A DNA stretch of 64,000 nucleotides, from sequence record PV577658. One strand, 5' to 3'. This DNA is from Escherichia phage vB_EcoS_MM-2. Below, piece after piece: positions 2,546-64,000 of this stretch. Each line of letters begins with the position of its first letter. The first letter of the stretch is position 1. Both the position numbers and the translations under genes were made by a program. The notes under the pieces are model-generated. The model worked only from the letters and a program-made list of their open reading frames with translations, was not told the origin of the DNA and searched no databases.

Positions 2546-2554
2546 GGAGGCAGA

Positions 2555-3538: not shown

Positions 3539-3546
3539 AATTTCAT

Positions 3547-3600
3547 TTGCAAGGGAGTATTATTTTATAGTATAATATTCCCATAAATGAGAGACATTAG
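3547..3600 (+). promoter_or_regulatory. early-type promoter (TTGCAA-18-TATAAT plus conserved downstream box)
   Basis: ttgcaa ... tataat followed by attcccataaatgagag, a variant of the ATTCATAAATTTGAGAG box seen after other promoters in the window. Confidence 0.55.
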
Positions 3601-7582: not shown

Positions 7583-7590
7583 AAATTTAT

Positions 7591-7650
7591 TTGCATAGTG
7601 CAAAAAATTTCTGTATAATAGATTCATAAATTTGAGAGAGGAGTTTAAAT
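7591..7650 (+). promoter_or_regulatory. strong early promoter of the T5 PN25 type
   Basis: aaaatttatttgcat(-35)..17 bp..tataat(-10) then agattcataaatttgagagaggagttt; matches my recollection of the PN25 promoter used in expression vectors. Confidence 0.65.
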
Positions 7651-8355
7651 ATGGCTGGTTCTCGTAGAAAGAAACATATCCATGAAATCCCGGATGAAGT
7701 CTTTAAAAAGGTTATAGAGCATCTGGAGAACGGTGGTACTAAGAAAGCAGCATGTGAAATGCTCGGCGTATCATCCAATCCAACTATGGAAAGGATGATT
7801 GAAGAATGGCAAGACCGCCAGATTCAAGTTGCCGAAATGAAGAAAAAGAAACGTGGCACACTCATTGAAGGCATTGAGTTAGCTAACGTTATTGAGCAGT
7901 ATTTATCTGGTGATTCTTTTGAAGAAATTGCCGATCGTAATTACCGCTCTGTAGCAATGGTTAAATCTGTTCTGGAACGATATGGTGCTCTACTTCGTTT
8001 GAACGATATTGTAGATCCATTGAATCCTCCAATTATTCCTGATGATGCTGTAGCAGAAGAATTTGCAGTTGGTGAGCTTGTTTGGGTTCCTGGATACCAG
8101 TGTATCGGTGAAATCAAAAAAGCAATGGATAATCCTGTTGGTTGCTACCGTGTATGGCTTCTATCCGAAGGCAAACAACAGAACGTTCATTATATGAATT
8201 ACGAGCTGGCTTCTGTTAAACATCTGGAAAAGTTAGGGGTAGACGTAAAATCTCTAGGGTATAAGTGGACTCGTGAAGAAATTATTACGTTGATTAACGA
8301 AGCTGTTAAGGCTGCTCTGAAACTTGATAAAGAAAAAGGAAAACGCCGTGAGTAA
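7651..8355 (+). CDS. putative helix-turn-helix DNA-binding / regulatory protein
   Basis: N-terminal GGTKKAACEMLGVS HTH-like segment; lysine-rich linker. Confidence 0.45.
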   Translation: MAGSRRKKHIHEIPDEVFKKVIEHLENGGTKKAACEMLGVSSNPTMERMIEEWQDRQIQVAEMKKKKRGTLIEGIELANVIEQYLSGDSFEEIADRNYRSVAMVKSVLERYGALLRLNDIVDPLNPPIIPDDAVAEEFAVGELVWVPGYQCIGEIKKAMDNPVGCYRVWLLSEGKQQNVHYMNYELASVKHLEKLGVDVKSLGYKWTREEIITLINEAVKAALKLDKEKGKRRE

Positions 8356-8599
8356 GCTAACAGATTTGCTTAAGGATGGTGAAACAAAAACCGTGTATCG
8401 TAGAAGCTGGGATAATGACAATAATGGCTTAGTGTTACTAACTTTAGACGCTGACTCAGATGTAGCTACCCAACATACCTGGGTAGCTGGTAATTATCCC
8501 TATAGTGAGGTTGTTACGTTAACAGTATGCGAAGCTATTGCCGACGATTGGGAGATTGCCAGCATTGATGATATGCTTGCTGTTGGCCTGGTGGAGTAA
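8324..8599 (+). CDS. hypothetical protein (likely start GTG ~8348)
   Basis: Track ORF; no motif. Confidence 0.35.
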   Translation: MIKKKENAVSKLTDLLKDGETKTVYRRSWDNDNNGLVLLTLDADSDVATQHTWVAGNYPYSEVVTLTVCEAIADDWEIASIDDMLAVGLVE

Positions 8600-8616
8600 C
8601 TACTGAAAAATTTCAG

Positions 8617-8660
8617 TTGCTTAATCCTATAATTCTTGATATAATATTCTCATAGTTTGA
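8617..8660 (+). promoter_or_regulatory. early promoter (TTGCTT-17-TATAAT)
   Basis: ttgctt..tataat followed by attctcatagtttgaaag, a variant of the downstream box. Confidence 0.5.
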
Positions 8661-8702
8661 AAGAACTATTCTGTTTAATTCTTAATTAAGGAAATATAAA
8701 AT

Positions 8703-9113
8703 ATGACTACTCCAACTCAGTGGACTGATGAACTGTTCGAAAAAATGTCTTCCGAATACGTTGCTCGTATGGAGCAATTCCCAGAGGATGAACGTCCGGG
8801 TGTTAGCATGGAAATTGTTAGCGAAATTGCCCAGGAAAATGGTGTAACTCCGAACGGTTTTCGTATGAAGCTGACTAAAGCAGGTTTGTATATCAAGAAA
8901 GCTGCTGGCTCTGCTTCTAAATCTAGCGCATCTACTGGAGAAAAGGCTTCTGGTGGTTCTCGTACCTCCAAAGCTCAAGCTCATGCCGATCTTCGTTCAG
9001 CATTCTCTGATGCTGGCTTAGCACCGGATTTTCTGGATGATGCAATTATCGATAAACTGACCGGTAAAGCGGCTGCTCATCTGGCAGAAGCAATCCGAGC
9101 TATCACTAAGTAA
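8703..9113 (+). CDS. putative DNA-binding protein with HTH-like module, strongly codon-biased
   Basis: MEIVSEIAQENGVTPNGFRMKLTKAGL resembles the repeated module in ORF 12111..12878; CTG/GCT/CGT-rich codon usage. Confidence 0.4.
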   Translation: MTTPTQWTDELFEKMSSEYVARMEQFPEDERPGVSMEIVSEIAQENGVTPNGFRMKLTKAGLYIKKAAGSASKSSASTGEKASGGSRTSKAQAHADLRSAFSDAGLAPDFLDDAIIDKLTGKAAAHLAEAIRAITK

Positions 9114-9149
9114 TTTTTAGATAAATCCACCAACAAAAGGAACACAGTT

Positions 9150-9446
9150 ATGACCAAAGCTGAAATTATCGCACAATGTGAAAAATTTGGTGAGTTTTAT
9201 CTTCATTACGAGAAACTTCGTCAGAAAGGAACCACGTATCTTCAGGGTACGATGGAATTTGATCCAGCCCAAGATAAATATCTAGCTGAGCGTATTAAAC
9301 GTGAACGTATTCGTAAAGCGAAAGATGATGAGATCCTTGTCTTCTCTCGTACTAATGATAGCTTCCGTTTTATTCCTGTCGAAAAAGTCCGTCGTGTGAC
9401 TAGCCTCCAATCAGAGTTAGATCGTGCTTCTCCAGTAGGCCGATAA
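9150..9446 (+). CDS. hypothetical protein
   Basis: Track ORF followed by a terminator hairpin. Confidence 0.4.
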   Translation: MTKAEIIAQCEKFGEFYLHYEKLRQKGTTYLQGTMEFDPAQDKYLAERIKRERIRKAKDDEILVFSRTNDSFRFIPVEKVRRVTSLQSELDRASPVGR

Positions 9447-9456
9447 GAAACCAATT

Positions 9457-9478
9457 AGCCCCTATATGGGGCTTTTTG
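9457..9478 (+). terminator. rho-independent terminator
   Basis: agcccc-tatat-ggggct hairpin followed by ttttgtg. Confidence 0.6.
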
Positions 9479-9496
9479 TGTATTTGGGATATGTAA

Positions 9497-9805
9497 ATGA
9501 GCGAACAGGTAAATCAAAACTATGAAGGACACGTTGATGACCAGTCCATCATACTTTGGGAGAAGGAGGGAGAACAAGTAAGATTAACAGTATCTGAATT
9601 TCGTGGGAATCTATACATGGGTATTCGTTACTGGCTTCTTGATATTAATGATGAGTGGTTTCCAACGAAATCTGGCTTCTCTTTTCCTTACACCCTAGAA
9701 ACAACATCACAGCTTTTCTATGCGTTTACACAGATTCTTAGCGAATCTGAGGTTTTACATGAAGTACAGAAACGAGCTGAAGAACTCAAAGCCAAGAATG
9801 CCTAG
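9497..9805 (+). CDS. hypothetical protein
   Basis: Track ORF; stop codon lies in the loop of the following terminator hairpin. Confidence 0.4.
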   Translation: MSEQVNQNYEGHVDDQSIILWEKEGEQVRLTVSEFRGNLYMGIRYWLLDINDEWFPTKSGFSFPYTLETTSQLFYAFTQILSESEVLHEVQKRAEELKAKNA

Positions 9806-9818
9806 TTCTTGGCTTTTT
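9791..9818 (+). terminator. rho-independent terminator
   Basis: gccaagaa-tgcctag-ttcttggc (8-bp stem) followed by tttttcttt. Confidence 0.6.
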
Positions 9819-9832
9819 CTTTATAAATGTAC

Positions 9833-9880
9833 TTGCTTTCAACTCAGTTTTGTTATATAATATTTATATAAATTAATGAG
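9833..9880 (+). promoter_or_regulatory. early promoter (TTGCTT-17-TATAAT)
   Basis: ttgctt..tataat then atttatataaattaatgagag downstream box. Confidence 0.55.
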
Positions 9881-9891
9881 AGGGTTGCAAA

Positions 9892-10164
9892 GTGAAAAAG
9901 ATAAGTATAAGTACACTTAAACCTTTCCCGTACATCGGACAGCCTCTTATACTTATGTGGGAGGAGAAGATTAATGGGGAAAAGTATACTAAAACTAGAA
10001 GTGGGTATAAGCTGACTTCACTTCATTACGAAAAAGAAGTATTAGTAGCTGAAATATACTCTCCGTTGTCAGATAGGCTAGTAAAAACTACATATTTGCA
10101 TCGTTGCAAAAATTATACATGGCACGGATCCACTAGACAACCCTCATACTGTGAGGCAGAATAA
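9892..10164 (+). CDS. hypothetical protein (GTG start)
   Basis: Track ORF beginning at gtgaaaaag. Confidence 0.35.
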   Translation: MKKISISTLKPFPYIGQPLILMWEEKINGEKYTKTRSGYKLTSLHYEKEVLVAEIYSPLSDRLVKTTYLHRCKNYTWHGSTRQPSYCEAE

Positions 10165-11136
10165 ATGACCAATGTAAAAGACTTTATTAAACGCTGTCAA
10201 GAAGCATATTATCAAGGTATGTCTTTAATCTCTGACGAAGAATATGATCGTCTGATTAAAAGATTTCCGTTAGAAGAAGAGATCGGGCCTAAGGGCGATA
10301 TTCCACATCTGTATCGTATGTATTCTTTACAGAAAGTTTATTATAATCGTGGAGATAAACCCCCGTTTAACCCATTAGGTCAGGTAGAAACTGATAAGTT
10401 AGATGGTTGTGCAATTTCTCTGTTATATATTAATGGCGAATTTGTTCAAGCACTAACTCGTGGTAACGGTATTCTAGGGAATGATGTCACAAGCAACGTA
10501 AGATTGCTGAACATCCCTAAAAAGATTTCCCAAAAAGTACCTACTCAAATCACTGGTGAAGTTCTAATTACAAAAGAAGTAGAAAATAAACGTAACTTTG
10601 CCTCTGGTGCTATTAACCTCAAAGATAGTGATGATTTTGTACAACGTATCGGAGAAGGTGGTTTAATCTTCGTTGCATATGGTATCCAGTGTTCTGCTGA
10701 ATCTGTAGGTATTACAGAAGCATATTTAAAAGATATGCTTTGGCTGGAGAATGAGAACTTCTTAACAGTTGTTAATGTGCGTTCTTTCTTTAAATGGATT
10801 CCGACGGACGGTAAAGTTGTTCGTATTAATGATAACAACAAATTCTTCCGTGAAGGCTGGACTAATAAATTCCCTCGTGGAGCATTCGCTATTAAAGAGG
10901 ATGAAGAAGGCGAGATTACAACTCTTACTAAAGTTGAATGGCAGGTAGGAGCTTCTGGTAAAGTAACTCCAGTTGGTTATTTCGAACCGGTAATTATTGA
11001 TGATGCTACAATTGTTAAAGCGACTCTTAATAACGTTGATTATATTAACTCTCTTGATCTAGAGATCGGTTGCCAGATTCGAGTGATTCGTGCTGGTGGT
11101 GTAATCCCGTGCATAGTAGAGCGAGTATATGATTAA
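10165..11136 (+). CDS. ligA: NAD-dependent DNA ligase, N-terminal subunit (adenylation domain)
   Basis: KxDG adenylation motif (TDKLDGCAIS), LTRGNG, and LigA-like layout. Confidence 0.75.
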   Translation: MTNVKDFIKRCQEAYYQGMSLISDEEYDRLIKRFPLEEEIGPKGDIPHLYRMYSLQKVYYNRGDKPPFNPLGQVETDKLDGCAISLLYINGEFVQALTRGNGILGNDVTSNVRLLNIPKKISQKVPTQITGEVLITKEVENKRNFASGAINLKDSDDFVQRIGEGGLIFVAYGIQCSAESVGITEAYLKDMLWLENENFLTVVNVRSFFKWIPTDGKVVRINDNNKFFREGWTNKFPRGAFAIKEDEEGEITTLTKVEWQVGASGKVTPVGYFEPVIIDDATIVKATLNNVDYINSLDLEIGCQIRVIRAGGVIPCIVERVYD

Positions 11137-53659: not shown

Positions 53660-53770
53660 TTTGACTTTTGCCAAATTTCATAAGATTACACATGGAGGTG
53701 TGTCCAGTGGGTCGGGGGAGAATACTTAGTCTGCTAACCGCCACCCCCCGTTACTATTATCATGGTAATT

Positions 53771-53807
53771 GTTTCACCCTGCAATTAAAATGGTTGCAGG
53801 GTGAAAC
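53771..53807. terminator. bidirectional terminator hairpin (perfect 14-bp stem)
   Basis: gtttcaccctgcaa-ttaaaatgg-ttgcagggtgaaac between the plus-strand peptide array and the minus-strand dmp-like gene. Confidence 0.7.
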
Positions 53808-53824
53808 AATTTCAACTTTAATTA

Positions 53825-54601
53825 TTACGCAACTTTTAATTTCTCGATATATTGTTGCGGGCTGCAACTATATTCTGCGCGTTCTTCCTCGGTCATACCT
53901 TCCCAACATAATTTCAAACGATCAGCTAGGAATTGATAATCATTATCATCATCGAGGGATTCATCAATAAAGGTTTCACCTATCAATGCCACGCCGATTG
54001 ATAGAATATCGTTAACGGCTTGCGCGTCCAGCGTTTTAAATCCGTATGATGCCGCCGCTGATAGTACACCCTTATGATCATCAATCATTGTAAAATCAGC
54101 GTTCGGATATAACTGTTTAAATAATTCAAAATAATAAGATTTATAAACTGCGTCTTTGCTGTGGTATATCTCGCTAACTTTATCAGCCTCAAAATATTTA
54201 TGCAGTGTATCGCGAGAAAACACGCGGATATTACTATCACCACGACCGCGCAAGCCTTGTTTGCGCAAATAATAATAGTCCGACTTGCTCATTAGTCGAG
54301 CGGTACAAATAATGTTTAAAGTATTTGCGTCATTCATGCACTGGCGCATATATGTAACAAGGGGCAATAAAGTATCTTGCATTATTAAATCATGTTTGCA
54401 GGCTTCATTTTTATACTTATTTAAATCTAAATTGCCCTCGCTATCAAAGCAAGGCGCTACACGATGGAAAGAATTAATGATAGTGCCGTCCAGATCCCAA
54501 ATCATGACGCGGGAAATATGCGGGAAATTACGGGTAATATTCATTTTAACTTGATTCATTTTGTTACGTTCTCCATTAAAGGGATTTAGTTTATCCAGCA
54601 T
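53825..54601 (-). CDS. dmp: HAD-family 5'-deoxyribonucleotidase-like protein (T5 dmp-like)
   Basis: HAD motif I MIWDLDGTI; first gene of a minus-strand operon with A1/A2-like genes; likely internal start giving ~244 aa. Confidence 0.55.
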   Translation of the reverse strand: MLDKLNPFNGERNKMNQVKMNITRNFPHISRVMIWDLDGTIINSFHRVAPCFDSEGNLDLNKYKNEACKHDLIMQDTLLPLVTYMRQCMNDANTLNIICTARLMSKSDYYYLRKQGLRGRGDSNIRVFSRDTLHKYFEADKVSEIYHSKDAVYKSYYFELFKQLYPNADFTMIDDHKGVLSAAASYGFKTLDAQAVNDILSIGVALIGETFIDESLDDDNDYQFLADRLKLCWEGMTEEERAEYSCSPQQYIEKLKVA

Positions 54602-54639
54602 TACCCGCTATTTATAAGCGGGTAATAATAAATCAACTA

Positions 54640-55032
54640 TTAAAGACCATAAGCCAACGCATCAGCGATAAAACTAACATCCTCACCGGATACGCTAGAA
54701 CGAATCCCCGCGCAGGTGTATACCTTTGCGCTCGCTAGCTGATCATCAAGGCAAGCGGGGCAAGGCGCGACAACTGCAAAGGCTAGACCAGATTTTACCG
54801 CGTCAATAATGATTGTTTCTTGTTTCATCGTGTCAACATAAACGCCTTTTGCTTTAATATGGCTGGTTAGTTTGCCTTGCGTATAGGCAAAGGTAGTAAC
54901 CTGTAAAGCGTCATTGAAATCTAATAATTCATCAATAACGTGCCCCGCCTCGACGTGGTAACGTTCACCATTAGAATAAACCAGAACAATGGAAGACTGA
55001 GCGCGATCGAATGGAATATTTTGCTTTTTCAT
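54640..55032 (-). CDS. small Cys/His-containing protein, possibly deaminase-like zinc-binding
   Basis: HVEAGH ... PCPAC motifs, but spacing (~70 aa) is longer than in canonical cytidine deaminases. Confidence 0.3.
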   Translation of the reverse strand: MKKQNIPFDRAQSSIVLVYSNGERYHVEAGHVIDELLDFNDALQVTTFAYTQGKLTSHIKAKGVYVDTMKQETIIIDAVKSGLAFAVVAPCPACLDDQLASAKVYTCAGIRSSVSGEDVSFIADALAYGL

Positions 55033-55071
55033 ACTTATAAAACTCCAATTAGTTTAATATAGGGATTTAAT

Positions 55072-55362
55072 TTATTTGATAATAATCTGCATCTGGTACG
55101 GCGTTAATTCACCGTTTACGGGTAAATTATTATCGCTTAGCCACTCATAAAAAGCGCCATCATCATCAAAAGGAACAACATCATTATCACGATAATCGAT
55201 GGAAATAATGCCATCCGTATTAGTTTTGGCGGCTAGGATAGGCCCAAAGCTGTAAACTTTATCGGATTCCATTTCATCCGGTGAGATGAATGCTTTTTCG
55301 TCCAATGTTTTGGGTAATGTAACTTTCATTTTTTGACTCCTGTAATAGCGGCTATATTTCAA
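55072..55362 (-). CDS. hypothetical pre-early protein (likely start at Met ~55329)
   Basis: Track ORF with conserved upstream translation-initiation region. Confidence 0.4.
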   Translation of the reverse strand: MKYSRYYRSQKMKVTLPKTLDEKAFISPDEMESDKVYSFGPILAAKTNTDGIISIDYRDNDVVPFDDDGAFYEWLSDNNLPVNGELTPYQMQIIIK

Positions 55363-55382
55363 GCCGCTAGGGGATAATTTAA

Positions 55383-57047
55383 TTACGCGAAAAATTTACC
55401 GTTTTTAAAGTCAATCAAAGTGCGCTGACCGTTTGCATAGGTAATTAAATGCGTTTGCGTCCAGCTTGACGCGCCAACGTTGTAACCCATATCCAGACTA
55501 CCAGCTACGCCAGCGGTATAAACGCCACCGTAAATGCTAGCGGTATGGGTGTGTCCCGTGTTTAGCTTGCCCAATTTCTTAAACTGTTTAGGATTGCCAC
55601 GACTGCCGTTAATGCCGTTGTGACCGTGTACGCCGCACTCAATGCCTGCAATCTTGAAAGATTGATCAGTGGTTAGGAAAATGGCGTTAAACTCACAACC
55701 TGCAACCTTGCGCAGCGCATAATCTAGCACGTTAAAAGTATCATCATGATCACTGATCGCCGCGTAAATTGCAGCATTCAGGCGGTGATATAGTTCGGCG
55801 TTGGCTGGATCGTCTTTGATGTTAGCATTACGATCATCTAACCAGCGGGATAGCGCCAAATCGTGATTAGATTCAACAATGATTGTTTGAGAGAAATCAC
55901 GTTCCATTGATTCCAGCACGCGCCCCGTATCGATAAGATCATCCAGAACTTTATCACGTCCAGCGGCATACTGTTTTGCTAGGAATACACCGGATGCACG
56001 GTTATGATGATTGCGCGATGTAAAATCATGCACGTCATGGATAAACTGATATTTTGGTTTAAGAATATCAAGCAAGCTATTTTCGCCAGCCCATGACGCA
56101 ACGGCACAATCATCATCTAATTTTTCCGCATGAATATCGCCATACTGCAAGCCTAAAACATGCCCCGATGTTTCATAGCATCCGGCAGGAGTAGCGCAAA
56201 CATTCAGATCATAAAACACCCCGCTTTCGTCCATTGTTTCAAGCTGGCGAACAAAAAATTCCCCGTCCTCGTCGAACTCAACAATCAGCGCGCCGAAGTT
56301 ATGCAGAGCTTCCGCTTTTTGTCCTGCTTTCTGCTGAATATAGTTTTTAAGCGTTGCCGTTCCGGTTGAATACATACGGCGCACTACTTCACCTTTTAAA
56401 GCTGGCACGCTTTCAGCGGTGATTTTAGCGTGACCAATTGCCAGCCCCTCAATATTGAGCGCCGTTGCAGTTTCTGCAAATCCTGAAAGCGGGTAATCTG
56501 CGGTTGGCAAAACATTAATTTCAGCCATGAAAGCAAAACGGCGGTTATTTAAAAACACGTTTTTGCTGCAAATATATTTATCAAATGCGGGATCGTATTT
56601 GATACCGTCTGCACCTTCTTCATTCTGGAAGCCATTTTTATTATAAATATACTTAGAAACAAGCAAATCAGCACCGATATATTCAGCGAATTTTTCCAGA
56701 CTTGCTAAAAAGTTTTTATGCGGGAAAGTATTATTTTGAATCGACGTAATAATAAAGCGTTTACCCTGTTTTACTTCCCATTGCTCAACCGTACTAGAAA
56801 CAATTCCCGCCGCTTCTGGGCGCTCATCGTTTTTAATGGCTTTTGCTACTTTTGCCGCTTTCGGTTTAGCTGGTTTATTTGCTTCCAGCCAGTCGCAGAT
56901 AGCGGTTGAATGCTTCGTTGTATCGTAGACCGCTTTTGATATATCGTCGCAGACTTCCAGTTTAGTAGCGCGCAGACGTTTACCATAGAAATTAAAGTCA
57001 GCGGCCATTTTCAGGATAACGGTTTGTTTTTCTGCGGAAATAATCAT
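55383..57047 (-). CDS. A1: A1-like pre-early protein with calcineurin-like metallophosphoesterase motifs
   Basis: 554 aa; GDIHAE and GHTHTAS metallophosphatase-type motifs; size and context match T5 A1 as I recall it. Confidence 0.6.
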   Translation of the reverse strand: MIISAEKQTVILKMAADFNFYGKRLRATKLEVCDDISKAVYDTTKHSTAICDWLEANKPAKPKAAKVAKAIKNDERPEAAGIVSSTVEQWEVKQGKRFIITSIQNNTFPHKNFLASLEKFAEYIGADLLVSKYIYNKNGFQNEEGADGIKYDPAFDKYICSKNVFLNNRRFAFMAEINVLPTADYPLSGFAETATALNIEGLAIGHAKITAESVPALKGEVVRRMYSTGTATLKNYIQQKAGQKAEALHNFGALIVEFDEDGEFFVRQLETMDESGVFYDLNVCATPAGCYETSGHVLGLQYGDIHAEKLDDDCAVASWAGENSLLDILKPKYQFIHDVHDFTSRNHHNRASGVFLAKQYAAGRDKVLDDLIDTGRVLESMERDFSQTIIVESNHDLALSRWLDDRNANIKDDPANAELYHRLNAAIYAAISDHDDTFNVLDYALRKVAGCEFNAIFLTTDQSFKIAGIECGVHGHNGINGSRGNPKQFKKLGKLNTGHTHTASIYGGVYTAGVAGSLDMGYNVGASSWTQTHLITYANGQRTLIDFKNGKFFA

Positions 57048-57137
57048 AGTAATAAAACTCCATTAAAGGGATTAGATTAATAACGGCAATATTGCCAAAT
57101 ATAACGCCTCAAATAATAGGCGTTATAATTTGCAACA

Positions 57138-57335
57138 TTAATTTAAAGGCACTAGGCTAGAACTAACACCACAAGCAACGGCAGCGATAAAACAAAGCAA
57201 GCCCAAACGTTTTGCTAATTTAGATTTACGTTTAAAATAATATGAATCTAAATCATTTTGAAAATAAGCGAACAATAACGAGGGCGCCATAATAAACAAG
57301 CCTAGAATTAATGATTCAGTAGGATAAAAGATCAT
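57138..57335 (-). CDS. small membrane protein (two predicted TM helices)
   Basis: MIFYPTESLILGLFIMAPSLLFAYF ... LGLLCFIAAVACGVSS; AGGAG RBS. Confidence 0.4.
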   Translation of the reverse strand: MIFYPTESLILGLFIMAPSLLFAYFQNDLDSYYFKRKSKLAKRLGLLCFIAAVACGVSSSLVPLN

Positions 57336-57429
57336 TTTAAAAACTCCTGATTTAAGGGAAGAAAATAACTATCGCTAAACAGTTATATTATTGCCCCCTC
57401 ACTAAAAAAAGGGGGGCAAGGTATAACTA

Positions 57430-57837
57430 TTATTCGCCTGCGGCTTGTTTTACTTCCTCGGCAACGCCTAACAATTGCGCTACTGCGTCCAGCGTTTCAA
57501 GTTTTGCACTTTCAAGGCTTGCCAGATCATCGGCATCTTTGATAATGCCGGAATCGATAGCGTGTTTTGCAATAACGCGTACATAATGAGCTTTGCGGAT
57601 TGAACTACCGCCGCCAACTTTGCGGGGCTTACCGCTTTTTTGATATGCTTTTGCGCTGGTCAATTTTGACCGAACGGATACGGGAGAAGCCGCGCCTACT
57701 GCTTTTGCAATCTCTTTCAGGCCGTCGCTATTTGCGAAATCTAAACCGTTTTCATTAATTAACTGTTGATACATGGAAACAGCTTTCTGAGTGTTTTCTT
57801 CATTCCATGCGAATTTTGCGGTTTTAGCGTTAGTCAT
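57430..57837 (-). CDS. A2: A2-like pre-early DNA-binding protein
   Basis: 135 aa (~15 kDa), basic central region; position upstream of the A1-like gene. Confidence 0.5.
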   Translation of the reverse strand: MTNAKTAKFAWNEENTQKAVSMYQQLINENGLDFANSDGLKEIAKAVGAASPVSVRSKLTSAKAYQKSGKPRKVGGGSSIRKAHYVRVIAKHAIDSGIIKDADDLASLESAKLETLDAVAQLLGVAEEVKQAAGE

Positions 57838-57933
57838 GATGTAACTCCTATTAGTTTAATTTAAGGGATTAGATTAACTTAATGTTAATCGTTATATCCC
57901 CCTGAAATAAGGGGATATAAAGTTAACACTAAT

Positions 57934-58185
57934 TTACAATACAGCTTCCCATTTTTCGTTGCGTTGAACAACCTTTACAACATCGCCGGATTTAACGCGA
58001 ACGCTAAAAACGGGCTTGCCGTTGTTACTACGTTCATTTTCAGCGTATACCGCGTCGATTGTATCGAACGGCATAAGCGCCGCACCTTTAATACGTTCGG
58101 CCTTTCCGGTTAATTCATCCGTTTTAGTAACGAAAGGAATGAAGACGAATTGACCAACTTTCGGCGCGGTAATAACGTTTTGCAT
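57934..58185 (-). CDS. hypothetical pre-early protein
   Basis: 83 aa; first gene of the minus-strand block. Confidence 0.4.
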   Translation of the reverse strand: MQNVITAPKVGQFVFIPFVTKTDELTGKAERIKGAALMPFDTIDAVYAENERSNNGKPVFSVRVKSGDVVKVVQRNEKWEAVL

Positions 58186-58415
58186 AATATAAACTCCTAG
58201 TTATTTGGGGATTGTTCCGCATTACCTGCTAGAAAGTAACAGCAGGTAATAAGTAACAATCCGCTCGCCAATATAATCAATTTTAAAGAACTCCACGTAG
58301 GCCGCTATATCCCGTTAGGGGGCGGGATGCATTATGGTAAGCACCGACCGTCAAATTTTATCAAGTTATCGCTCTTATCGAACTGGGTACATCTTAAAAC
58401 CTATCGGCTAGGTTG

Positions 58416-58619
58416 TCAAACAATTTTTTGCAATTTTTTATGATTTTCTTTTAGGTCAATCATAATATTTCGCCAGATCATTTCCAGACCTTGCTGGCGA
58501 CCTTTCTTGTACTGCGTGAATCTATATCTTACTGATCTTTGAGCTACTGTCAACAAATTTTTTGTTTTGCTATCTAGTGCCTTAATAGGCTTGCCAGTGA
58601 TCAAAAGCGTTTGTTTCAT
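58416..58619 (-). CDS. hypothetical small basic protein
   Basis: 67 aa, Lys/Arg-rich; weak RBS. Confidence 0.3.
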   Translation of the reverse strand: MKQTLLITGKPIKALDSKTKNLLTVAQRSVRYRFTQYKKGRQQGLEMIWRNIMIDLKENHKKLQKIV

Positions 58620-59066
58620 ATCGTCGATTCCTTATAATGAATAAGTTTACCGCCGATAGGCTTTAAGATGTACCCAATTTTTAAAGAGCGTGGCGGTAAA
58701 CTTCCCGCCGTGTAGTTCGTCATTGCCGCCCTACGAGATAAATAATAGGGGATTCCCGAAAATGGCGCAACCTTATTTTTGTAAAGAAATGTAAAGGTAA
58801 AACTCACCGGACACCGTGCGGCGACGGCCTAAAATTAAAAGAAACGGGCGCGCGAATACCACAAAATAAAGCAAATAGGCAAGTAATTTTTTCATTTATA
58901 TTTGCTTTGCCCTACTTGACAAAATCTAAAAAGCTCGTGGTAACGATAAACGGCTTATCCCCTTATGATGGGATGGCTAAAAACTTTATTGCGTTCTGGA
59001 GCGTTTTAGGCGCATTCTAGCCTTGTTGATAACTTATCCCCAAAAGCAAAAATGAAATTTTCCTAG

Positions 59067-59099
59067 TTATCCACTTGACTTTTATTTTCCAGTGGATAA
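59067..59099. promoter_or_regulatory. inverted pair of DnaA-box-like 9-mers around a TTGACT hexamer
   Basis: agTTATCCACTtgacttttattttccAGTGGATAAct; 11-bp perfect inverted repeat, each arm one mismatch from TTATCCACA. Confidence 0.5.
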
Positions 59100-59273
59100 C
59101 TACTTATTTTATGAAATAAATTAATTGACTTTTATTTGTTAGTATGCATCGGAAAGATAGCAGACTAATAATTGCTAGAATGATAATCATGCTGGTGGAT
59201 TGTAACGACCTGAATTATTAGCAGACTATTAATCACGGAAAAATCTCATTAGCCAACTAACTATTTCATGATA

Positions 59274-59300
59274 TATAATATACATATAAATTAATGAGAA
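59274..59300 (+). promoter_or_regulatory. promoter-like element of the early family
   Basis: tataat followed by atacatataaattaatgagaaa box; no convincing -35; no gene for ~430 bp downstream. Confidence 0.35.
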
Positions 59301-59351
59301 ATAATAACTATAAGAAATCATCTAGCTAAGTGAGAACCACTATCATTTAAG

Positions 59352-59372
59352 TTATACACAAAGTTATCCACA
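59352..59372 (+). promoter_or_regulatory. two adjacent DnaA-box-like sites
   Basis: gTTATACACAaagTTATCCACAgc: one perfect consensus 9-mer and one with a single mismatch. Confidence 0.5.
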
Positions 59373-59443
59373 GCACTTTTTGACTTGACACGATAGGCGG
59401 CGATATAAGGACTTTTACACAGACTTATCTACAGGTTATTCCA

Positions 59444-59459
59444 CTGTATAAATATACAG
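59444..59459. promoter_or_regulatory. LexA (SOS) box-like palindrome
   Basis: CTGTATAAATATACAG fits CTGT-N8-ACAG with AT-rich spacer. Confidence 0.45.
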
Positions 59460-59726
59460 GGTAAAAAGGTAGTGTTAACAACTGCAATCAATTTTAAGCG
59501 GCTTAAATCGCATTCTAACGAGCTAAACGCTGCGGGGTAATATTAAAGTAAAGCCTTAATGCGTCGCCCTGGTGGCTTCGCCGTGGTTTGCTCTTTATTG
59601 CACCGCTGCGCGGTTAGCATAAAAATAGGCGCTAGGCAAGGAAAATAAAAAGGTAAAATAATATTTGCCTATGCTAGAAATTTACCTTTATCATTCACTC
59701 ACCGATTAACGAGGGAGGCCGAACAA

Positions 59727-60506
59727 ATGAGGCTTTATAAACCTGATAATGCCACCGTTTTAAAAGGTGCATTGCGCAACCTGCTGGATGGTAGCAAGTC
59801 AACCAGCATTAAACATTTTATTAACAAGATTGAAACTATTCATCAAAACTTTTTTGATGATTATGACGCTTATGATATGGATAGTTTTCTACCCTTATAT
59901 AGACAAGGGGCAACGCTAGTTTTATATAATCGGGATTGCCATATCTTTACAGGCAGGGGAGCGGGGCCGGATACCGATTTTATTGTTGCGCAGGGTAATA
60001 ATATTGTTGCGTATCATAGCAATTCAGGCCGTCAATCATTTAATATAAATAGTTTTGAGCTTATTGGACTTGATCTGATAAATGGACTTTCTAGCATTGA
60101 GGGATTTTTAGATGTTATCTGGAAGTATTTACCCGCTGGATGGCATAAGCCGGATAACGACGGATCTCAATATACCGGTATAATGGCTTTTGATGGCGAC
60201 GGTAATTTTTTGTTACCACGGGAGCTATACCCATATATTTATGATGGGGATATAGAAAGCGCTGGTTTTTCTTTCTGGAAAGATGAAGATCAGATTATTG
60301 ACAGCGTAGAAAACCATGCTGTAAATTCTAACACTCAAAGCGTTAACACTCAAACTACTGAAAACAAAGGAAAAAACACTATGACCAAGATTGCTAACAT
60401 CGTTGCCGCTAATAAATCCGCCGTTGTAAATGCTGCAAAACTGGAAGCGGGTAAAATTGCACTGACTCAAATCACGAAAGTAGCGGCTAAAAAGCACCGT
60501 TCATGA
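59727..60506 (+). CDS. hypothetical protein, 259 aa
   Basis: Track ORF with RBS GAGGGAGG; no recognisable motif. Confidence 0.45.
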   Translation: MRLYKPDNATVLKGALRNLLDGSKSTSIKHFINKIETIHQNFFDDYDAYDMDSFLPLYRQGATLVLYNRDCHIFTGRGAGPDTDFIVAQGNNIVAYHSNSGRQSFNINSFELIGLDLINGLSSIEGFLDVIWKYLPAGWHKPDNDGSQYTGIMAFDGDGNFLLPRELYPYIYDGDIESAGFSFWKDEDQIIDSVENHAVNSNTQSVNTQTTENKGKNTMTKIANIVAANKSAVVNAAKLEAGKIALTQITKVAAKKHRS

Positions 60507-60736
60507 TTAAAGGCTATATTGATACGCCGATTGGTCGAGTAGTGATTGCTAACCTGCTAAGTGTAGCGGTTGACCAGTACGCACCGACTAACCAGAAAGC
60601 GAAAGCGGTAGCAGGGGCGGCTATGGAAGCGGCAATGCTGGAAATGGTGCAAAGTTTTAACATCGCTGAAATGATTGATGAAATGGTGAAAGGTATTGAT
60701 ATTTCTACTTTTACCACTAGCACCGAAATCGAGTAA
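60503..60736 (+). CDS. hypothetical protein
   Basis: Track ORF, ATGA overlap with upstream gene. Confidence 0.4.
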   Translation: MIKGYIDTPIGRVVIANLLSVAVDQYAPTNQKAKAVAGAAMEAAMLEMVQSFNIAEMIDEMVKGIDISTFTTSTEIE

Positions 60737-60801
60737 TAATATTTAGTGGGGATTATTTCCCCACTTTACTACTCCCTTGTTAATTAATAGGAGGCTAACT
60801 A

Positions 60802-61296
60802 ATGGCTGAGGAAAAATACGGCTTCTCGCTAGGAGAAGTGAGCACGGCTAAACATGATATGATCATTTTAGTCGATTGTCATACTGGCTATTGCGGAGAA
60901 GGGAACACCGAAGAATACTTTGTTCCTGCTGGTACGGATCTGGACGCTTTCGCTCATGAAATGGCTATTGATAATGCTTCTCGTTTTGGTAGCGATGGCT
61001 ATGAAGACGAAGAAACTGGCGAATGGTATGAAAATGAAAACGTATATGCAAGCCTTTATCATTATCAGCTAAGTAAATCCGGCACATATGTAAACGGCGG
61101 CGATCCTATTAATTCCGTCATGAAATTAATTATTAAATATGGTGGCGTCGAGATAATTGATAACAAAGCGGTAATATACGCAAACCGATTAAAACAGCTT
61201 GTTTATATTCCTGATAGTACCCGATGGGATGAATACGCTGTTTTGCATGACGAATTGAAACGATGTTTCAATATTGAATCCCTGCAAGTAGTCTAA
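60802..61296 (+). CDS. hypothetical acidic protein
   Basis: Track ORF with RBS AGGAGG. Confidence 0.45.
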   Translation: MAEEKYGFSLGEVSTAKHDMIILVDCHTGYCGEGNTEEYFVPAGTDLDAFAHEMAIDNASRFGSDGYEDEETGEWYENENVYASLYHYQLSKSGTYVNGGDPINSVMKLIIKYGGVEIIDNKAVIYANRLKQLVYIPDSTRWDEYAVLHDELKRCFNIESLQVV

Positions 61297-61323
61297 TGTA
61301 AAGTTTTGTAAAGGTCGCCTTTT

Positions 61324-61632
61324 ATGGTGGCCTTTTTTGTTATAATGCTTTTACACCAAAACGGTGGATTGAAAATTTTCCCAAAAATTTGGAGGCTTAA
61401 AATGGTTGCTTATTCTTCTGCTAGTCATCTGTTTACCGCGCAAGGCTGGGTATCTAATCGTGCTGTCATCTATGAAATGGTGCAGGAGTTCGGCATTGCT
61501 AAAACTTATAATACCATTCAGGAACTATATAACGCCGATAAAATCGATCAGCAAACGGCTGGCTTTTTACTGGATACCCTGAAAGCTGAACATTGCACTA
61601 AAAAACAAGCCGCTAAAATTGTTTTAATGTAA
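61324..61632 (+). CDS. hypothetical protein (likely start at Met ~61402)
   Basis: GGAGG RBS precedes the internal Met; followed by hairpin cggggcg..cgccccg. Confidence 0.4.
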   Translation: MVAFFVIMLLHQNGGLKIFPKIWRLKMVAYSSASHLFTAQGWVSNRAVIYEMVQEFGIAKTYNTIQELYNADKIDQQTAGFLLDTLKAEHCTKKQAAKIVLM

Positions 61633-61681
61633 TTAATAACGGGGCGTTACTTTCGCCCCGATAACTAGGAGGCTATCACAA

Positions 61682-61832
61682 ATGGTTATTTTTCGATCTA
61701 TTTTAGCGGGTATCTTGGGCGCTATTTTATCGTTATTTGCGATAGCTTTCGGCGTTCACGCTGTTATTATTGGCGCTGGCATTGCTGCGTTTTCTTATCT
61801 GCTGGGCTGCATGACTAGTAAAGGAGAATAAA
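61682..61832 (+). CDS. small membrane peptide (~50 aa)
   Basis: Hand-translated: MVIFRSILAGILGAILSLFAIAFGVHAVIIGAGIAAFSYLLGCMTSKGE; AGGAGG RBS. Confidence 0.35.
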
Positions 61833-61833
61833 A

Positions 61834-62046
61834 ATGATCCGCAACGTTTCCCTTGCACGTTCGAAAGGCTTTAAGCTGGTGGATGTTAACACGTTCGAGT
61901 GGGAAGATTGTAAAATCGAATATGTAGCACGTAACAAAAATGCCTTTCGTGTTACCGAGAAAAAATTTGATAAGCGCGGCAACGTGATAGCTGAAACAGT
62001 TAAACATTTTGCCACCTTTTACGCTGCTTTCCGTGGGGTATTATGA
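61834..62046 (+). CDS. hypothetical protein
   Basis: Track ORF. Confidence 0.4.
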   Translation: MIRNVSLARSKGFKLVDVNTFEWEDCKIEYVARNKNAFRVTEKKFDKRGNVIAETVKHFATFYAAFRGVL

Positions 62047-62146
62047 TTCAGCAAATTAAAACGGCTTTTCGTTTTTGGGGCGTCCTGCCTTCAATTGGTT
62101 TTATTCTGATAATTATTAGTCAGCTAATGATCATCGGCGGAACTAT

Positions 62147-62506
62147 TTGGGAGCTATGCAAATGATAATTTATGAAGGCAATCGCTTTGTTGCTAATTGC
62201 CGTCCGGCATTATTAGCAAACTATTTAAACCAGCTTTCCCCAGCTTATAAGGGCGTTATTAATATTTATGAGGGAAAGGCGCATTATAAAATTAATGCGG
62301 TCGTTGCCCGTGAACTAGCATTTCAATTTTTGACCTTTGCATCTTGTGACGTTCAGGTTATGGGTGAGGCATTAATCGCGGAAAATGAAGAGGATTTTAT
62401 TAATATTTTCCGTAAGGTATGCACTGAGCGCTTGATAATGAAAGGCGCGTATATTCAATCAACTGCGGAAAGTATTGAAACAGCATTTCGAAAGGTGGCG
62501 CAATGA
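62147..62506 (+). CDS. hypothetical protein
   Basis: Track ORF. Confidence 0.4.
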   Translation: MGAMQMIIYEGNRFVANCRPALLANYLNQLSPAYKGVINIYEGKAHYKINAVVARELAFQFLTFASCDVQVMGEALIAENEEDFINIFRKVCTERLIMKGAYIQSTAESIETAFRKVAQ

Positions 62507-62606
62507 GATTATATATTTTCGTTGGTAATGTTAAGGCAGCTAATGATTCCGCTGGTGGCGACAACGTTCGCCACCATTGGCAAAAATATATTTACTAGGA
62601 GTTATT

Positions 62607-62711
62607 ATGTCTGGTTTAATGTTTACCTTATTAGTAGTTTATAGCATAATTACGGCAGGAATAGTAACTTATGTTACTAGTAAAATTTGGCCGGGAATAT
62701 ATGGTAATTTT
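62607..62711 (+). CDS. small membrane peptide (~34 aa)
   Basis: Hand-translated: MSGLMFTLLVVYSIITAGIVTYVTSKIWPGIYGNF; RBS AGGAG. Confidence 0.3.
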
Positions 62712-62729
62712 TAATAACGGAGCGTTATT

Positions 62730-62933
62730 ATGAGCAATAAAATTATTGTAACCAAAATCAGTACAATGGTTGATGTTTTTTACGTGCCAGATACGCCGGA
62801 GAATCGGCAAGCGGTCGAGCGGGGCGAATATGATAAAGTGATTTATGATCACGATGGTTATTATCAGTATTTGGTGGATTCCTACGGGGAGGAGGAGAAG
62901 ATCACGCATCGACTACCGGAGGAGGGTTTATGA
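62730..62933 (+). CDS. hypothetical acidic protein
   Basis: Track ORF with RBS ACGGAG. Confidence 0.4.
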   Translation: MSNKIIVTKISTMVDVFYVPDTPENRQAVERGEYDKVIYDHDGYYQYLVDSYGEEEKITHRLPEEGL

Positions 62934-63083
62934 AACGATGGTTTAATCACTGGTACAAGCGGTTTTTAGTACGCCGTCGCAAGTCTAGGCATCAAGATGA
63001 GTGGCGGGAGTGGGCAAAGCGTAACGGTTGCCCGCTACTATAATAATCACGGGGCGCAACTATCGGGAAGTGCCCCCAATTCT

Positions 63084-63106
63084 CAAATGAGAATCATTCT
63101 CATTTG
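63084..63106. repeat. perfect 11-bp-arm palindrome caaatgagaat-c-attctcatttg
   Basis: Core aatgagaatcattctcatt recurs at ~63474 (imperfect) and ~63581 (perfect). Confidence 0.7.
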
Positions 63107-63299
63107 ACCGCGCCCGCGATGGTTAGCCTGCTAATGATTAGGGTGTTACGTGTCGCCTTGTGTGATCGTTAGCGAGCTAACTAATTTTCAAGCCTCCTCC
63201 AATTTTGCCCTTGTTTTAGTATCTCCACCAAAATTAAACGCGTTAGAATGCGATCTAGGACGTTTTAACGCTATATTAGAATTATTCACTGCGTAGGAA

Positions 63300-63319
63300 T
63301 ACTGTATATTTATACAGTA
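63300..63319. promoter_or_regulatory. LexA (SOS) box-like palindrome, 19/20 match to consensus
   Basis: TACTGTATATTTATACAGTA versus TACTGTATATATATACAGTA. Confidence 0.5.
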
Positions 63320-63399
63320 GGATAAGCTGTGATAAGTCTGTTAATAACACCCCAAAATGGCTAGGATTCTGTCAAGTCAAATCGTGCTGTTAATAAGTC

Positions 63400-63408
63400 T
63401 GTGGATAA
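63400..63408 (-). promoter_or_regulatory. DnaA-box-like site (perfect 9-mer on minus strand)
   Basis: tgtggataa is the reverse complement of TTATCCACA; flanked by repeated gataagtctgt. Confidence 0.45.
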
Positions 63409-63426
63409 CTTAAATAATAGTGTTTC

Positions 63427-63600
63427 TCACTTCCGTTCTTAAATACGAATCACTATCATTTGCGTTCCACTTTCTAAATGAGAATCATTCTGCTTTTTAA
63501 AGGAGAATCGTTTCACTTCCTGAATAATTCTCACTTCCATTCTTAAATGCGAATTATTATCATTCTCATTCCGCTTTTTAAATGAGAATCATTCTCATTA
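63427..63600. repeat. two ~70-100 bp imperfect direct repeats carrying the aatgagaatcattctcatt palindrome
   Basis: ctcacttccgttcttaaatacgaatcactatcatt... and ctcacttccattcttaaatgcgaattattatcatt..., each ending in the palindrome core. Confidence 0.65.
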
Positions 63601-63639
63601 TCATTCGCATTCAGGCGAGCAGGGCAATTGCCCTGCGCT

Positions 63640-63760
63640 TTTGTGCAAATCCGACATTGCTCCACGGGTGTTACGTGCGGGCGTGTATGTGCGAATCCCT
63701 GTGGGGTATGTGCAAATCCGACACGGTTTTTCTAGGATTAAGATGTGCGAATCCGACAAG
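63640..63760. repeat. four iteron-like copies of ATGTGC(A/G)AATCC(GACA)
   Basis: tgtgcaaatccgaca, tgtgcgaatccctgt, tgtgcaaatccgaca, tgtgcgaatccgaca at ~20-35 bp spacing. Confidence 0.65.
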
Positions 63761-63770
63761 ATTTTTGTGA

Positions 63771-63960
63771 CTTCGATTGGAGGGTGTGTGATTGTGTGAG
63801 TTTGGGGAGAAGTTGAGAGAGCGAGAAAAATTTGAGGGAACTGCGGGAGGGGCGCATGTTTGGTGCGGAGCACCTGATTTGCGGGGATTTTGGGGAAGAG
63901 TTGAGAAGATTTGGGTTAATTTGAGATTAGTGCAGAAAAAGTAAAATTTTATTAGCTAAA
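63771..63960 (+). other. polypurine, C-depleted tract with repeated (t)ttgag(a/g) motifs
   Basis: Almost no C on the plus strand; gttgagagag, tttgaggg, gttgagaag, tttgagattag; no credible ORF. Confidence 0.5.
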
Positions 63961-64000
63961 TGGAGCAAAATAGCTTGACAAGTGAAAATTCTTGTGGCTC

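Follow-up and report, generated by a model that had tools for sequence, protein, structure and literature searches.

A cluster of small genes in the right terminal repeat of Escherichia phage vB_EcoS_MM-2, very probably the rightward pre-early operon of a T5-like phage

The locus and its terminal repeat

The window analysed here, a stretch of 64,000 nucleotides from Escherichia phage vB_EcoS_MM-2 (PV577658), carries near its right end twelve plus-strand ORFs between positions 59727 and 63043. The original prediction had described at least nine small ORFs in this region, and the cluster is present with two amendments: the ORFs of 259 and 77 aa belong to a single gene, and the end at 62933 was placed too early, the operon going on with a 37-aa ORF (62930–63043). 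The good ribosome-binding sites attributed to the cluster were found for ten of the twelve ORFs (an AGGAGG-like Shine-Dalgarno 5–10 nt upstream), the exceptions being o40, with a weak GGGG, and the 77-aa ORF, with none. Junctions are as tight as claimed, with five ATGA overlaps and two further gaps of 2 and 8 nt, and the enrichment of the terminal block in GC proved marginal (40.2% versus 38.6%, and 39.6% for the segment 59727–62933).

The window matches, at 100% identity, the final 64 kb of Escherichia phage vB_EcoS_MM-1 (Tequintavirus; PV577657.1), and its end is the right genome end. The block sits within a terminal direct repeat of ~10.3 kb (53702–64000) that corresponds to the LTR of PV577657.1, annotated in two places in that record; the identity is gap-free over LTR positions 1–9629 and is followed by indels of 1 nt and 107 nt, position 64000 of the window pairing with LTR 10407, the annotated repeat end. 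A1 (554 aa) and A2 (135 aa) are encoded on the minus strand at 55383–57837, divergent from the block, and the block is syntenic with the opposite-strand genes A1, A2 and dmp. Restriction-site avoidance is confined to the repeat (0 versus 51 sites, counted for ten enzymes of types I and II), where Dcm sites are also nearly all avoided; avoidance limited in this way is a classic mark of first-step-transfer DNA. The results computed here are those on identity, position, orthology, coding constraint and operon anatomy; for timing, toxicity and nickase activity the analysis relies on published work on T5 and its relative Bas33.

Gene 011

The first gene of the block appears as an N-terminal fragment of 259 aa (59727–60506; phrog_4263) and a C-terminal fragment of 77 aa (60503–60736), which match Pfam PF24450 (DUF7566) with 209.8 bits over positions 5–256 and 145.7 bits over positions 260–334 of 336, respectively, both above the gathering threshold of 27 bits. 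They are two parts of one DUF7566 gene (T5.011), which is not read in a single frame owing to the loss of one nucleotide in an A-run at 60489–60493; alignment gives A5 in the window and A6 in ECOP18, T5 and oldekolle. The 77-aa fragment starts at a native internal methionine, overlaps the upstream stop in an ATGA, lacks a Shine-Dalgarno and is 91–99% identical at the amino acid level in 13 phages. According to the AF2 model of an intact relative (P0019), the N fragment comprises a globular domain of alpha/beta type, the disordered linker and the first of the long helices. The name "DNA N-6-adenine methyltransferase" given by UniRef to 011 homologues of Epseptimavirus was rejected, as Pfam returns DUF7566 only and no PDB match was obtained with the N-domain of the gp011 model.

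Programmed frameshifting at the A-run was rejected because the run has only five A's, no in-frame X XXY YYZ heptamer occurs and the relatives encode the protein in one frame. A homopolymer sequencing error, with an intact 336-aa gp011 in the phage itself, is a real possibility, though we lean somewhat away from it: a single-base A5/A6 difference is all that separates the split from the intact gene, ECOP18 (99.8% identical) carries 011 intact and the exact 259-aa and 77-aa products are absent from all other public assemblies, whereas truncated or split forms of 011 recur independently, in P0074 (an independent protein truncated at the same A-run), in T5 records (a 245-aa product), in APCEc03 (248 and 37 aa) and in Seabear (193 aa). 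Wild-type T5 011 also resisted cloning owing to its toxicity, which makes loss or attenuation of the gene plausible. With gene 011 split in this phage, the phenotype of T5 011 may not apply to it.

Genes downstream of 011

The next ORF encodes an acidic accessory protein of 164 aa (60802–61296; phrog_6741, net charge -17, pI 4.4) that is absent from T5 and yields a confident structure model without a PDB match. It is followed by the homologue of gene 012 (61402–61632; 68–100% identity), listed as a 102-aa ORF from a start at 61324 that lies inside a terminator hairpin; the protein is really 76 aa long like T5.012, from the ATG at 61402, which is preceded by GGAGG, and phrog_5145 covers residues 27–102 of the longer ORF. 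The 49-aa homologue of gene 013 (61682–61831; phrog_5607) is a two-span membrane peptide only 65% identical to T5.013. Gene 014 (61834–62046) encodes a basic 70-aa protein (net +6) with 99% identity to T5.014, and gene 015 (62162–62506) a protein with 93% identity to T5.015 over 114 aa. The 114-aa ORF is most likely, judging by sequence, the orthologue of T5.015, an Ung-dependent AP-site nickase (Mahata et al., 2021, PMC8201957), and the UniRef cluster of T5.015 is named "DNA-(apurinic or apyrimidinic site) endonuclease". In the GenBank record of this phage and in PHROGs, the "endonuclease" label is carried by the neighbouring 70-aa 014 ORF, so that this widely propagated label probably marks the wrong ORF. 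PDB sequence searches found no solved structure of a T5.015-type nickase. Gene 017 (62730–62933; phrog_6973, 56–100% identity) encodes an acidic protein of 67 aa (net -7).

Four micro-ORFs complete the block. o40 (40 aa, 62043–62165) encodes a single-span hydrophobic peptide in the interval between 014 and 015 (slot A) and slot B holds o31 (31 aa, non-hydrophobic, 62503–62598) and o35 (35 aa, single-span hydrophobic, 62607–62714), while the last gene of the operon is o37 (62930–63043), whose very basic product (pI 11.6) of 37 aa starts at an ATGA overlap behind the Shine-Dalgarno GGAGGAGGG. The three tiny hydrophobic peptides of the original prediction are borne out: 013, o40 and o35 have peak 19-residue KD values of 2.54, 2.33 and 2.05, and all three have the size of small membrane toxins or holin-like proteins (1–2 hydrophobic spans, <60 aa). 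o40 and o35 are absent from T5, and o31 and o37 are there, unannotated; the HdH2 record names its o31 copy "similar to ORF017" of T5. o35 is 91–100% identical at the amino acid level where it is intact.

Promoters and terminators

A sigma-70 promoter candidate (TTGCCT, 18 nt, TATCAT) was found by consensus scan at 59665–59694 on the plus strand, as are all signals given below. The 170 nt 5' of 011 are ~96% identical to T5 6330–6497, which contains the annotated T5 promoter 6411–6489. A stem-loop 3' of gene 011 lies at 60745–60765 (RNA fold -18.8 kcal/mol, z -3.1); in T5 a terminator is annotated 3' of 011 at 7534–7559. Before 012 (61310–61346; -15.1 kcal/mol, z -4.7), an intrinsic terminator hairpin with T-run (61310–61340) directly adjoins an extended -10 box, TGTTATAAT (61338–61346). 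In each of the 14 relatives with a 012 gene the terminator is kept, its stem changes being compensatory, and the box is invariant in 13 of the 14, being TGCTATAAT in KPP2018; the box is likely an internal promoter for 012 onward. A GC-rich stem-loop without a T-run lies between 012 and 013 (61640–61660; -15.1 kcal/mol, z -2.9), and two stable hairpins (63051–63107; -25.7 kcal/mol, z -5.2) mark the end of the operon and the beginning of the repeat-rich injection-stop region; in T5 a terminator is annotated 3' of 017 at 9275–9296.

Coding constraint and database searches

Substitution patterns (pN/pS) were computed against 14 related phages. In-frame values are 0.30 for 011N, 0.09 for 011C, 0.13 for the 164-aa gene, 0.15 for 012, 0.14 for 013, 0.07 for 014, 0.08 for 015, 0.17 for 017 and 0.11 for o37, and the other two frames exceed 1 for each of these (above 3.8 for o37, which belongs to a 23-member protein cluster). 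The signal is weaker for the remaining micro-ORFs (o40 0.32–0.42, o31 0.28), and the test for o35 is underpowered by too few substitutions. By in-frame purifying selection, the nine ORFs listed first (0.07–0.30) are real.

Profile and structure searches, as proposed with the original prediction, yielded no function: when all ORFs were scanned against Pfam, NCBIfam and PHROGs, only DUF7566 and PHROGs of unknown function came back. The claim that recognisable motifs are lacking stands for function only, as nine ORFs belong to PHROG or Pfam families. NCBIfam, RAP, ASL_C and DUF2809 matches were dropped with scores far under threshold. PDB sequence searches with 014, 015 and the profile of the DUF7566 C-terminal module gave nothing meaningful (the best match, the Mx2 stalk at E 0.013, was dismissed as generic helical similarity), and an Rfam scan of 57000–64000 had no match.

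Comparison with T5 and other early gene sets

The ORFs are orthologous to the T5 pre-early genes T5.011 to T5.017 (tblastn), 011, 012, 013, 014, 015 and 017 being 65–99% identical at the amino acid level to their T5 counterparts (NC_005859), and the block shares with the T5 rightward operon its position in the repeat, its orientation relative to A1, A2 and dmp, its promoter region and its gene order. The two phages differ in that hegG (T5.010) and T5.016 are absent here, and in that this phage has the extra 164-aa gene after 011, the extra micro-ORFs o40 and o35 and a frameshift-split 011. We conclude that the segment is very probably the right-terminal-repeat copy of a T5-like phage's rightward pre-early (first-step-transfer) operon. 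The block is already known, and the window brings no gene class beyond those deposited and partly studied for T5.

In T5, 011, 013 and 015 were found to be toxic in E. coli (PMC8201957; bioRxiv 10.64898/2026.04.02.716235). Expression of gp013 led to lysis-like damage, an effect that was not observed by Mahata et al., and a T5 deletion from hegG to 017 is viable. In Bas33, early transcription was seen and ten pre-early proteins were detected (PMC13250531). The set had been presented as uncharacterised, which does not hold, since its T5 orthologues have been studied experimentally; five of the twelve ORFs (164-aa, o40, o31, o35 and o37) fall outside the set of 17 tested T5 genes. The proposal of takeover factors finds support in the published T5 toxicity of three of them (011, 013 and 015), and toxicity upon over-expression does not establish the natural role of pre-early products. 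The timing, toxicity and nickase properties of T5 and Bas33 are inferred, by analogy, to transfer to this phage.

By that analogy, the identical left-end copy would be carried into the cell in the leading ~8% of the genome and host sigma-70 RNA polymerase would transcribe the block from the promoter just 5' of gene 011, with a second promoter likely overlapping the terminator before 012. The products would be small host-takeover proteins: gp011 (DUF7566), toxic and disturbing the nucleoid in T5 and frameshift-split here; gp013, a two-span membrane peptide that may damage the envelope when over-produced, as in T5; and gp015, which would bind host Ung and nick Ung-made abasic sites as its T5 counterpart does. 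The block would be accessory, as T5 remains able to grow on laboratory E. coli after loss of the hegG–017 stretch. The original prediction placed these ORFs among the first genes expressed, of the class known from T5; the class assignment holds, with T5.011–T5.017 orthologues in the repeat, but the right-end copy enters the cell last, so that "first in" applies to the identical left-end twin alone. The right-end copy would be largely silent because A1 presumably shuts off the pre-early promoters before it arrives.

The class I early genes of T7 (0.3 Ocr, 0.4, 0.7) and the immediate-early small ORFs of T4 resemble the block in being promoter-proximal, small, mostly dispensable and often toxic, and likewise are made by host RNA polymerase from first-entering DNA; no similarity of sequence or fold to the block was found and, unlike in T7 and T4, DNA entry in T5-type phages pauses during expression of these genes. 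The anti-defence islands in the leading region of conjugative plasmids share first-entering DNA, small ORFs and restriction-site avoidance with the block and have no families in common with it, an anti-defence role of the block being a candidate one.

The anti-defence question

At least one product could be an anti-defence factor (anti-restriction or anti-abortive-infection) and not a general takeover toxin, a reading that overlaps with the takeover explanation and that we consider unlikely. Restriction of types I, II and III is ineffective against Tequintaviruses except where sites fall in first-step-transfer DNA, and the pre-early factor behind their resistance was still unidentified in 2023 (PMC10644984). 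None of the ten type I and II sites tested occurs in the repeat, nearly all Dcm sites are avoided there as well, and variable accessory slots such as those of the block are typical of arms-race genes. The 164-aa protein and gp017 are acidic (net -17 and -7) like DNA mimics; however, the former showed no sequence or fold similarity to DNA-mimic anti-restriction proteins of the Ocr or ArdA type, and searches of the block ORFs against Pfam, NCBIfam, PHROGs and the PDB gave no match to a known family of anti-defence proteins. The 164-aa gene, o40 and o35 are moreover missing from T5, itself restriction-insensitive, while 012, 013, 014 and 015 are common to the restriction-sensitive Epseptimaviruses, and no gene of the block cleanly separates resistant Tequintavirus from sensitive Epseptimavirus, except for a divergent type of 011 N-domain. 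ORF094 and ORF103, which are the PARIS triggers of T5 (Ptr1 and Ptr2), lie outside the block.

Variable slots and modularity

It is quite improbable that o40, o31 and o35 are chance ORFs in T-rich spacer DNA: although they are only 31–40 aa long and missing in many relatives, hydrophobic peptides arise by chance from T-rich codons and o35 has too few substitutions for a selection test, clear Shine-Dalgarno sequences precede o31 (AAGGTGG) and o35 (TAGGAG), o40 and o31 each begin at an ATGA in which stop and start codons overlap, o40 (20-member cluster) and o35 (17-member cluster) are intact in 13 and 12 phage records, o31 has eight orthologues, pN/pS of o40 and o31 is 0.28–0.42 in frame versus 0.9–1.6 out of frame (above 1.4 for o40, 0.95–1.11 for o31), and slots A and B host at least six other unrelated micro-ORF families (33–53 aa), all six with hydrophobic spans and the four tested having in-frame pN/pS of 0.10–0.28. 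These micro-ORFs are best read as genes, and the variable slots beside 015 hold unrelated membrane micro-ORFs in other T5-like phages.

The C-terminal helical module of DUF7566 (~123 aa) hardly varies across Tequintavirus and Epseptimavirus. It is C-terminal in 149 of 150 representative matches, stands alone in 21 and has at least 51 unrelated N-terminal regions as fusion partners, a layout similar to that of polymorphic toxins, in which a constant targeting or docking part is combined with a swappable effector part. It is conceivable, though we would not expect it, that DUF7566 is a modular early effector and that the slots flanking 015 are exchange sites for unrelated membrane micro-proteins. 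If so, the slot peptides could act in superinfection exclusion, in control of the DNA-entry pause or in anti-defence. The modular build of DUF7566 suggests a route to dissecting its toxicity.

The practical value of the analysis lies in its corrections (one broken 011 gene and a misplaced "endonuclease" label) and in leads that the T5 experiments do not cover and that would cost little to test, namely the 164-aa acidic protein, o40, o35 and o37. The pre-early genes of T5-like phages are the expected home of the long-sought restriction-insensitivity factor, and the block is a legitimate place to search for it.

Position of the Cluster in the Right Terminal Repeat

A megablast search with 59400-63300 matched 439 phage records, the best being Escherichia phage vB_EcoS_MM-1 (PV577657.1, Tequintavirus), which is matched at 100% over the entire query in two places in its record, with a match inside the annotated left terminal repeat (LTR, 1-10407). 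When LTR positions are converted to window positions by adding 53701, the identity is gap-free through LTR 9629; beyond it there are only indels of 1 and 107 nt in a repeat-rich non-coding part, and window base 64000 aligns with LTR 10407. The window is therefore the final 64 kb of the genome and ends in the right terminal repeat, which spans 53702-64000. The terminal repeats of the deposited genome thus differ, the right copy lacking the 1 nt and the 107-nt block at window 63330 and 63697 (LTR 9630 and 9998-10104 of PV577657.1), which could be an assembly artefact or true repeat-number variation. A1 (554 aa) and A2 (135 aa) lie on the minus strand with dmp further left, an arrangement as in T5, and the cluster forms the half of the pre-early first-step transfer (FST) region that runs rightward. 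The GC-richer terminal block described in the original prediction amounts to a small excess (40.2% versus 38.6%).

Coding Content and T5 Counterparts

Twelve plus-strand ORFs lie within 59727-63043, the last of the operon being o37 (62930-63043), which encodes a very basic protein of 37 aa. ATGA overlaps occur at five junctions, and AGGAGG-like Shine-Dalgarno sequences precede 10 of the 12 ORFs, so that the good ribosome binding sites first reported hold for all except o40 (62043-62165), where a weak GGGG is all that precedes the start, and the ORF of 77 aa at 60503, which lacks one. Nei-Gojobori pN/pS values from the orthologous regions of 14 relatives were low in frame for both pieces of gene 011 (0.30 for the 259-aa ORF at 59727-60506 and 0.09 for the 77-aa ORF at 60503-60736), the gene for an acidic 164-aa protein at 60802-61296 (0.13), 012 (0.15), 013 (0.14), 014 (0.07), 015 (0.08), 017 (0.17) and o37 (0.11), and exceeded 1 out of frame for each of them; these are real genes. 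Constraint is weaker on the micro-ORFs o40 (0.32-0.42) and o31 (62503-62598; 0.28), and o35 (62607-62714) has too few substitutions for the test; even so, all three have been kept intact, in 12-13 phage records or in protein clusters of 17-20 members. The small-gene cluster proposed earlier is accordingly real, except that it ends at 63043, that its 259- and 77-aa ORFs are one gene and that its 102-aa ORF is a gene of 76 aa.

By tblastn, the products share 88% (N part) and 95% (C part) amino acid identity with T5.011, 83% with T5.012, 65% with T5.013, 99% with T5.014, 93% with T5.015 and 88% with T5.017. T5's hegG and T5.016 are absent from the block, and T5 in turn lacks the 164-aa gene, o40 and o35. 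The block is already deposited and has largely been studied in T5: among clones of T5.002 to T5.017, Mahata et al. observed toxicity for 008, 011 and 015 (PMC8201957), and a preprint issued in 2026 by the Boulanger and Rossier laboratory, with NC_005859 numbering, lists dmp, A1, hdi, hegG, 011, 013 and 015 as toxic (10.64898/2026.04.02.716235). In the latter study, expression of 011 led to uneven nucleoid staining and that of 013 to lysis-like ghosts, a hegG-to-017 deletion mutant was viable, and 011 "resists functional predictions" according to the authors. In the relative Bas33, only the pre-early region was transcribed under daunorubicin and ten pre-early proteins were detected (PMC13250531).

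Start of Gene 012 and Transcription Signals

The deposited record annotates 012 as a 102-aa ORF from 61324, with an ATG inside a terminator stem. Because PHROG 5145 matches only residues 27-102 of this ORF and a GGAGG lies upstream of the ATG at 61402, gene 012 encodes 76 aa from 61402, like T5.012. Over the 170 nt that precede 011, identity to the T5 region with a mapped promoter is about 96%, and stable hairpins lie 3' of 011, the 164-aa gene, 012 and o37. The canonical terminator hairpin at 61310-61335, whose stem has changed in a compensatory way across all 14 relatives carrying 012, is directly followed by an extended -10 box, TGTTATAAT (whole element 61310-61346), invariant in 13 of 14 relatives and replaced by TGCTATAAT in KPP2018. 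The box probably serves as a promoter inside the operon for 012 to o37; in T5 only a terminator is annotated in the 011-012 interval.

The Split of Gene 011 and the DUF7566 Module

On the 336-position Pfam profile DUF7566, the 259-aa ORF covers 5-256 and the 77-aa ORF 260-334, and the 99.8% identical phage ECOP18 has one 1011-nt gene in their place. The A-run at 60489-60493 is AAAAA in the window versus AAAAAA in ECOP18, T5 and oldekolle; the start codon of the 77-aa piece is a native internal Met codon, lies in an ATGA overlap with the new stop and is not preceded by a Shine-Dalgarno sequence. The split may be a real mutation or a homopolymer error. The exact MM-1 fragments are absent from all other public assemblies; P0074, an independent protein, is cut at the same A-run and ends in AAKKHRL. 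Truncation is also seen in P0058 (245 aa, from the annotation of T5 records), in APCEc03 (248 + 37 aa) and in Seabear (193 aa).

In a model of full-length gp011 built from a relative (P0019, 28 sequences), a well-predicted alpha/beta domain (residues 1-188) is joined by a disordered linker (189-217) to a helical domain of low confidence (218-336). The last ~125 residues are nearly invariant in Tequintavirus and Epseptimavirus, while N-domain identity falls to 42-44%; synonymous divergence is normal (pS 0.29), and therefore the constraint acts on the protein sequence. With the 77-aa fragment as query, a full HMMER scan of 1.84 billion representatives matched 387 clusters. Of the 150 matches listed, 149 have the module at the C-terminus, 21 consist of it alone, and 117 are extended N-terminally by 80 aa or more; by BLASTP these extensions form at least 51 mutually unrelated groups. 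The module occurs in phage early regions: the gene for an extended module protein of 445 aa likewise opens an operon that diverges from a T5-A2 homologue (locus L019), and others are found among small ORFs on phage contigs of ~26 and ~100 kb. Judged from these comparisons, the C-terminal ~123 aa of DUF7566 (window 60359-60736; loci L017, L019, L020 and L021) are an autonomous module.

Probable Identity of the Abasic-Site Nickase

T5 015 binds Ung and nicks the abasic sites that Ung makes (Mahata et al., PMC8201957). The label "endonuclease nicking abasic sites" (generated by Ung) is placed by the MM-1 GenBank record and PHROG 4227 on the 70-aa ORF at 61834-62046, of the T5.014 family. Exact-sequence look-up identifies this protein as T5 "ORF015" (UniProt Q5DMS9) and the 114-aa protein as "hypothetical protein T5.015" (AAS77062.1), the UniRef cluster of the latter being named "DNA-(apurinic or apyrimidinic site) endonuclease". 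Downstream of 011, UniProt ORF numbers, which include a 245-aa ORF011, run one ahead of the T5.0xx locus tags, as would fit a split of 011 in that T5 annotation. Both experimental papers use the T5.0xx scheme, with gene lists that skip 001, 004, 006 and 010 (dmp, A1, A2 and hegG), and this numbering, like the UniRef name, points to 62162-62506 (114 aa) as most likely the predicted nickase orthologue. The endonuclease label on the 70-aa family is probably a numbering mix-up, whose likely source is the clash of the UniProt name ORF015 with the locus tag T5.015.

Variable Slots Beside 015

The 014/015 slot, which in the window holds o40, and the 015/017 slot, which holds o31 and o35, vary across loci L002-L016: they are empty in some relatives and in others hold differing micro-ORFs, unrelated to one another, that are 31-53 aa long, have one or two hydrophobic spans in nearly all cases and give in-frame pN/pS of 0.10-0.42. 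Product starts include MIQQIK, MKSVIV, MERAIVK and MRSLYIAL in the first slot and MKKFLIAG, MAVYIALLGY, MSGLMF and MNSWWRK in the second. The label "iron ABC transporter permease" that ECOP18 gives one of them is surely spurious.

Proposed Anti-defence and Takeover Functions

Pfam, NCBIfam and PHROG gave no functional assignment for any ORF of the block. The 164-aa protein, strongly acidic (net charge -17), has 18 homologue clusters, exclusively in T5-like phages; its confident AF2 model (pLDDT 87.6, pTM 0.81) retrieved only uncharacterised Demerecviridae-type phage proteins with Foldseek/BFVD, such as those of Shivani, JIPh_Kp127, My1 and AAS21. Some of its homologues (P0013, P0014, P0016 and P0018) carry a zinc-ribbon-like insertion of ~16 residues (CPEC...C.DC) that the window copy lacks. 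These profile and structure searches thus yielded neither a mundane nor an anti-defence function.

Type I, II and III restriction does not affect tequintaviruses unless FST DNA holds sites; as of 2023, the responsible factor had not been identified (PMC10644984). The repeat's coding part (53702-63100, 9.4 kb) is free of sites for EcoRI, EcoRV, HindIII, BamHI, PstI, SacII, EcoKI, EcoB, EcoA and EcoR124I, where ~8.9 would be expected, and has a single Dcm site; the remaining 53.7 kb (1-53701) have 51 of these enzyme sites and 54 Dcm sites; pooled 6-bp palindromes show no depletion there. Such avoidance is the known FST signature of DNA exposed before protection and is silent on which gene protects. 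The injection-stop region contains five copies of a Fur-box-like palindrome, AATGAGAATCATTCTCATT, at 63076-63612 (9 matches at up to 3 mismatches versus 0.06 expected), repeats of TGTGCAAATCCGACA at 63641-63766 and, near 63400, a DnaA-box-like TGTGGATAA.

The proposal that these are early-expressed takeover or anti-defence genes is right as regards T5 homology (65-99% aa), takeover and, for the left copy, early timing, but its anti-defence part is unsupported. The remaining interest lies in the accessory ORFs outside the T5 experiments, the modularity of DUF7566 and the slots for micro-proteins.
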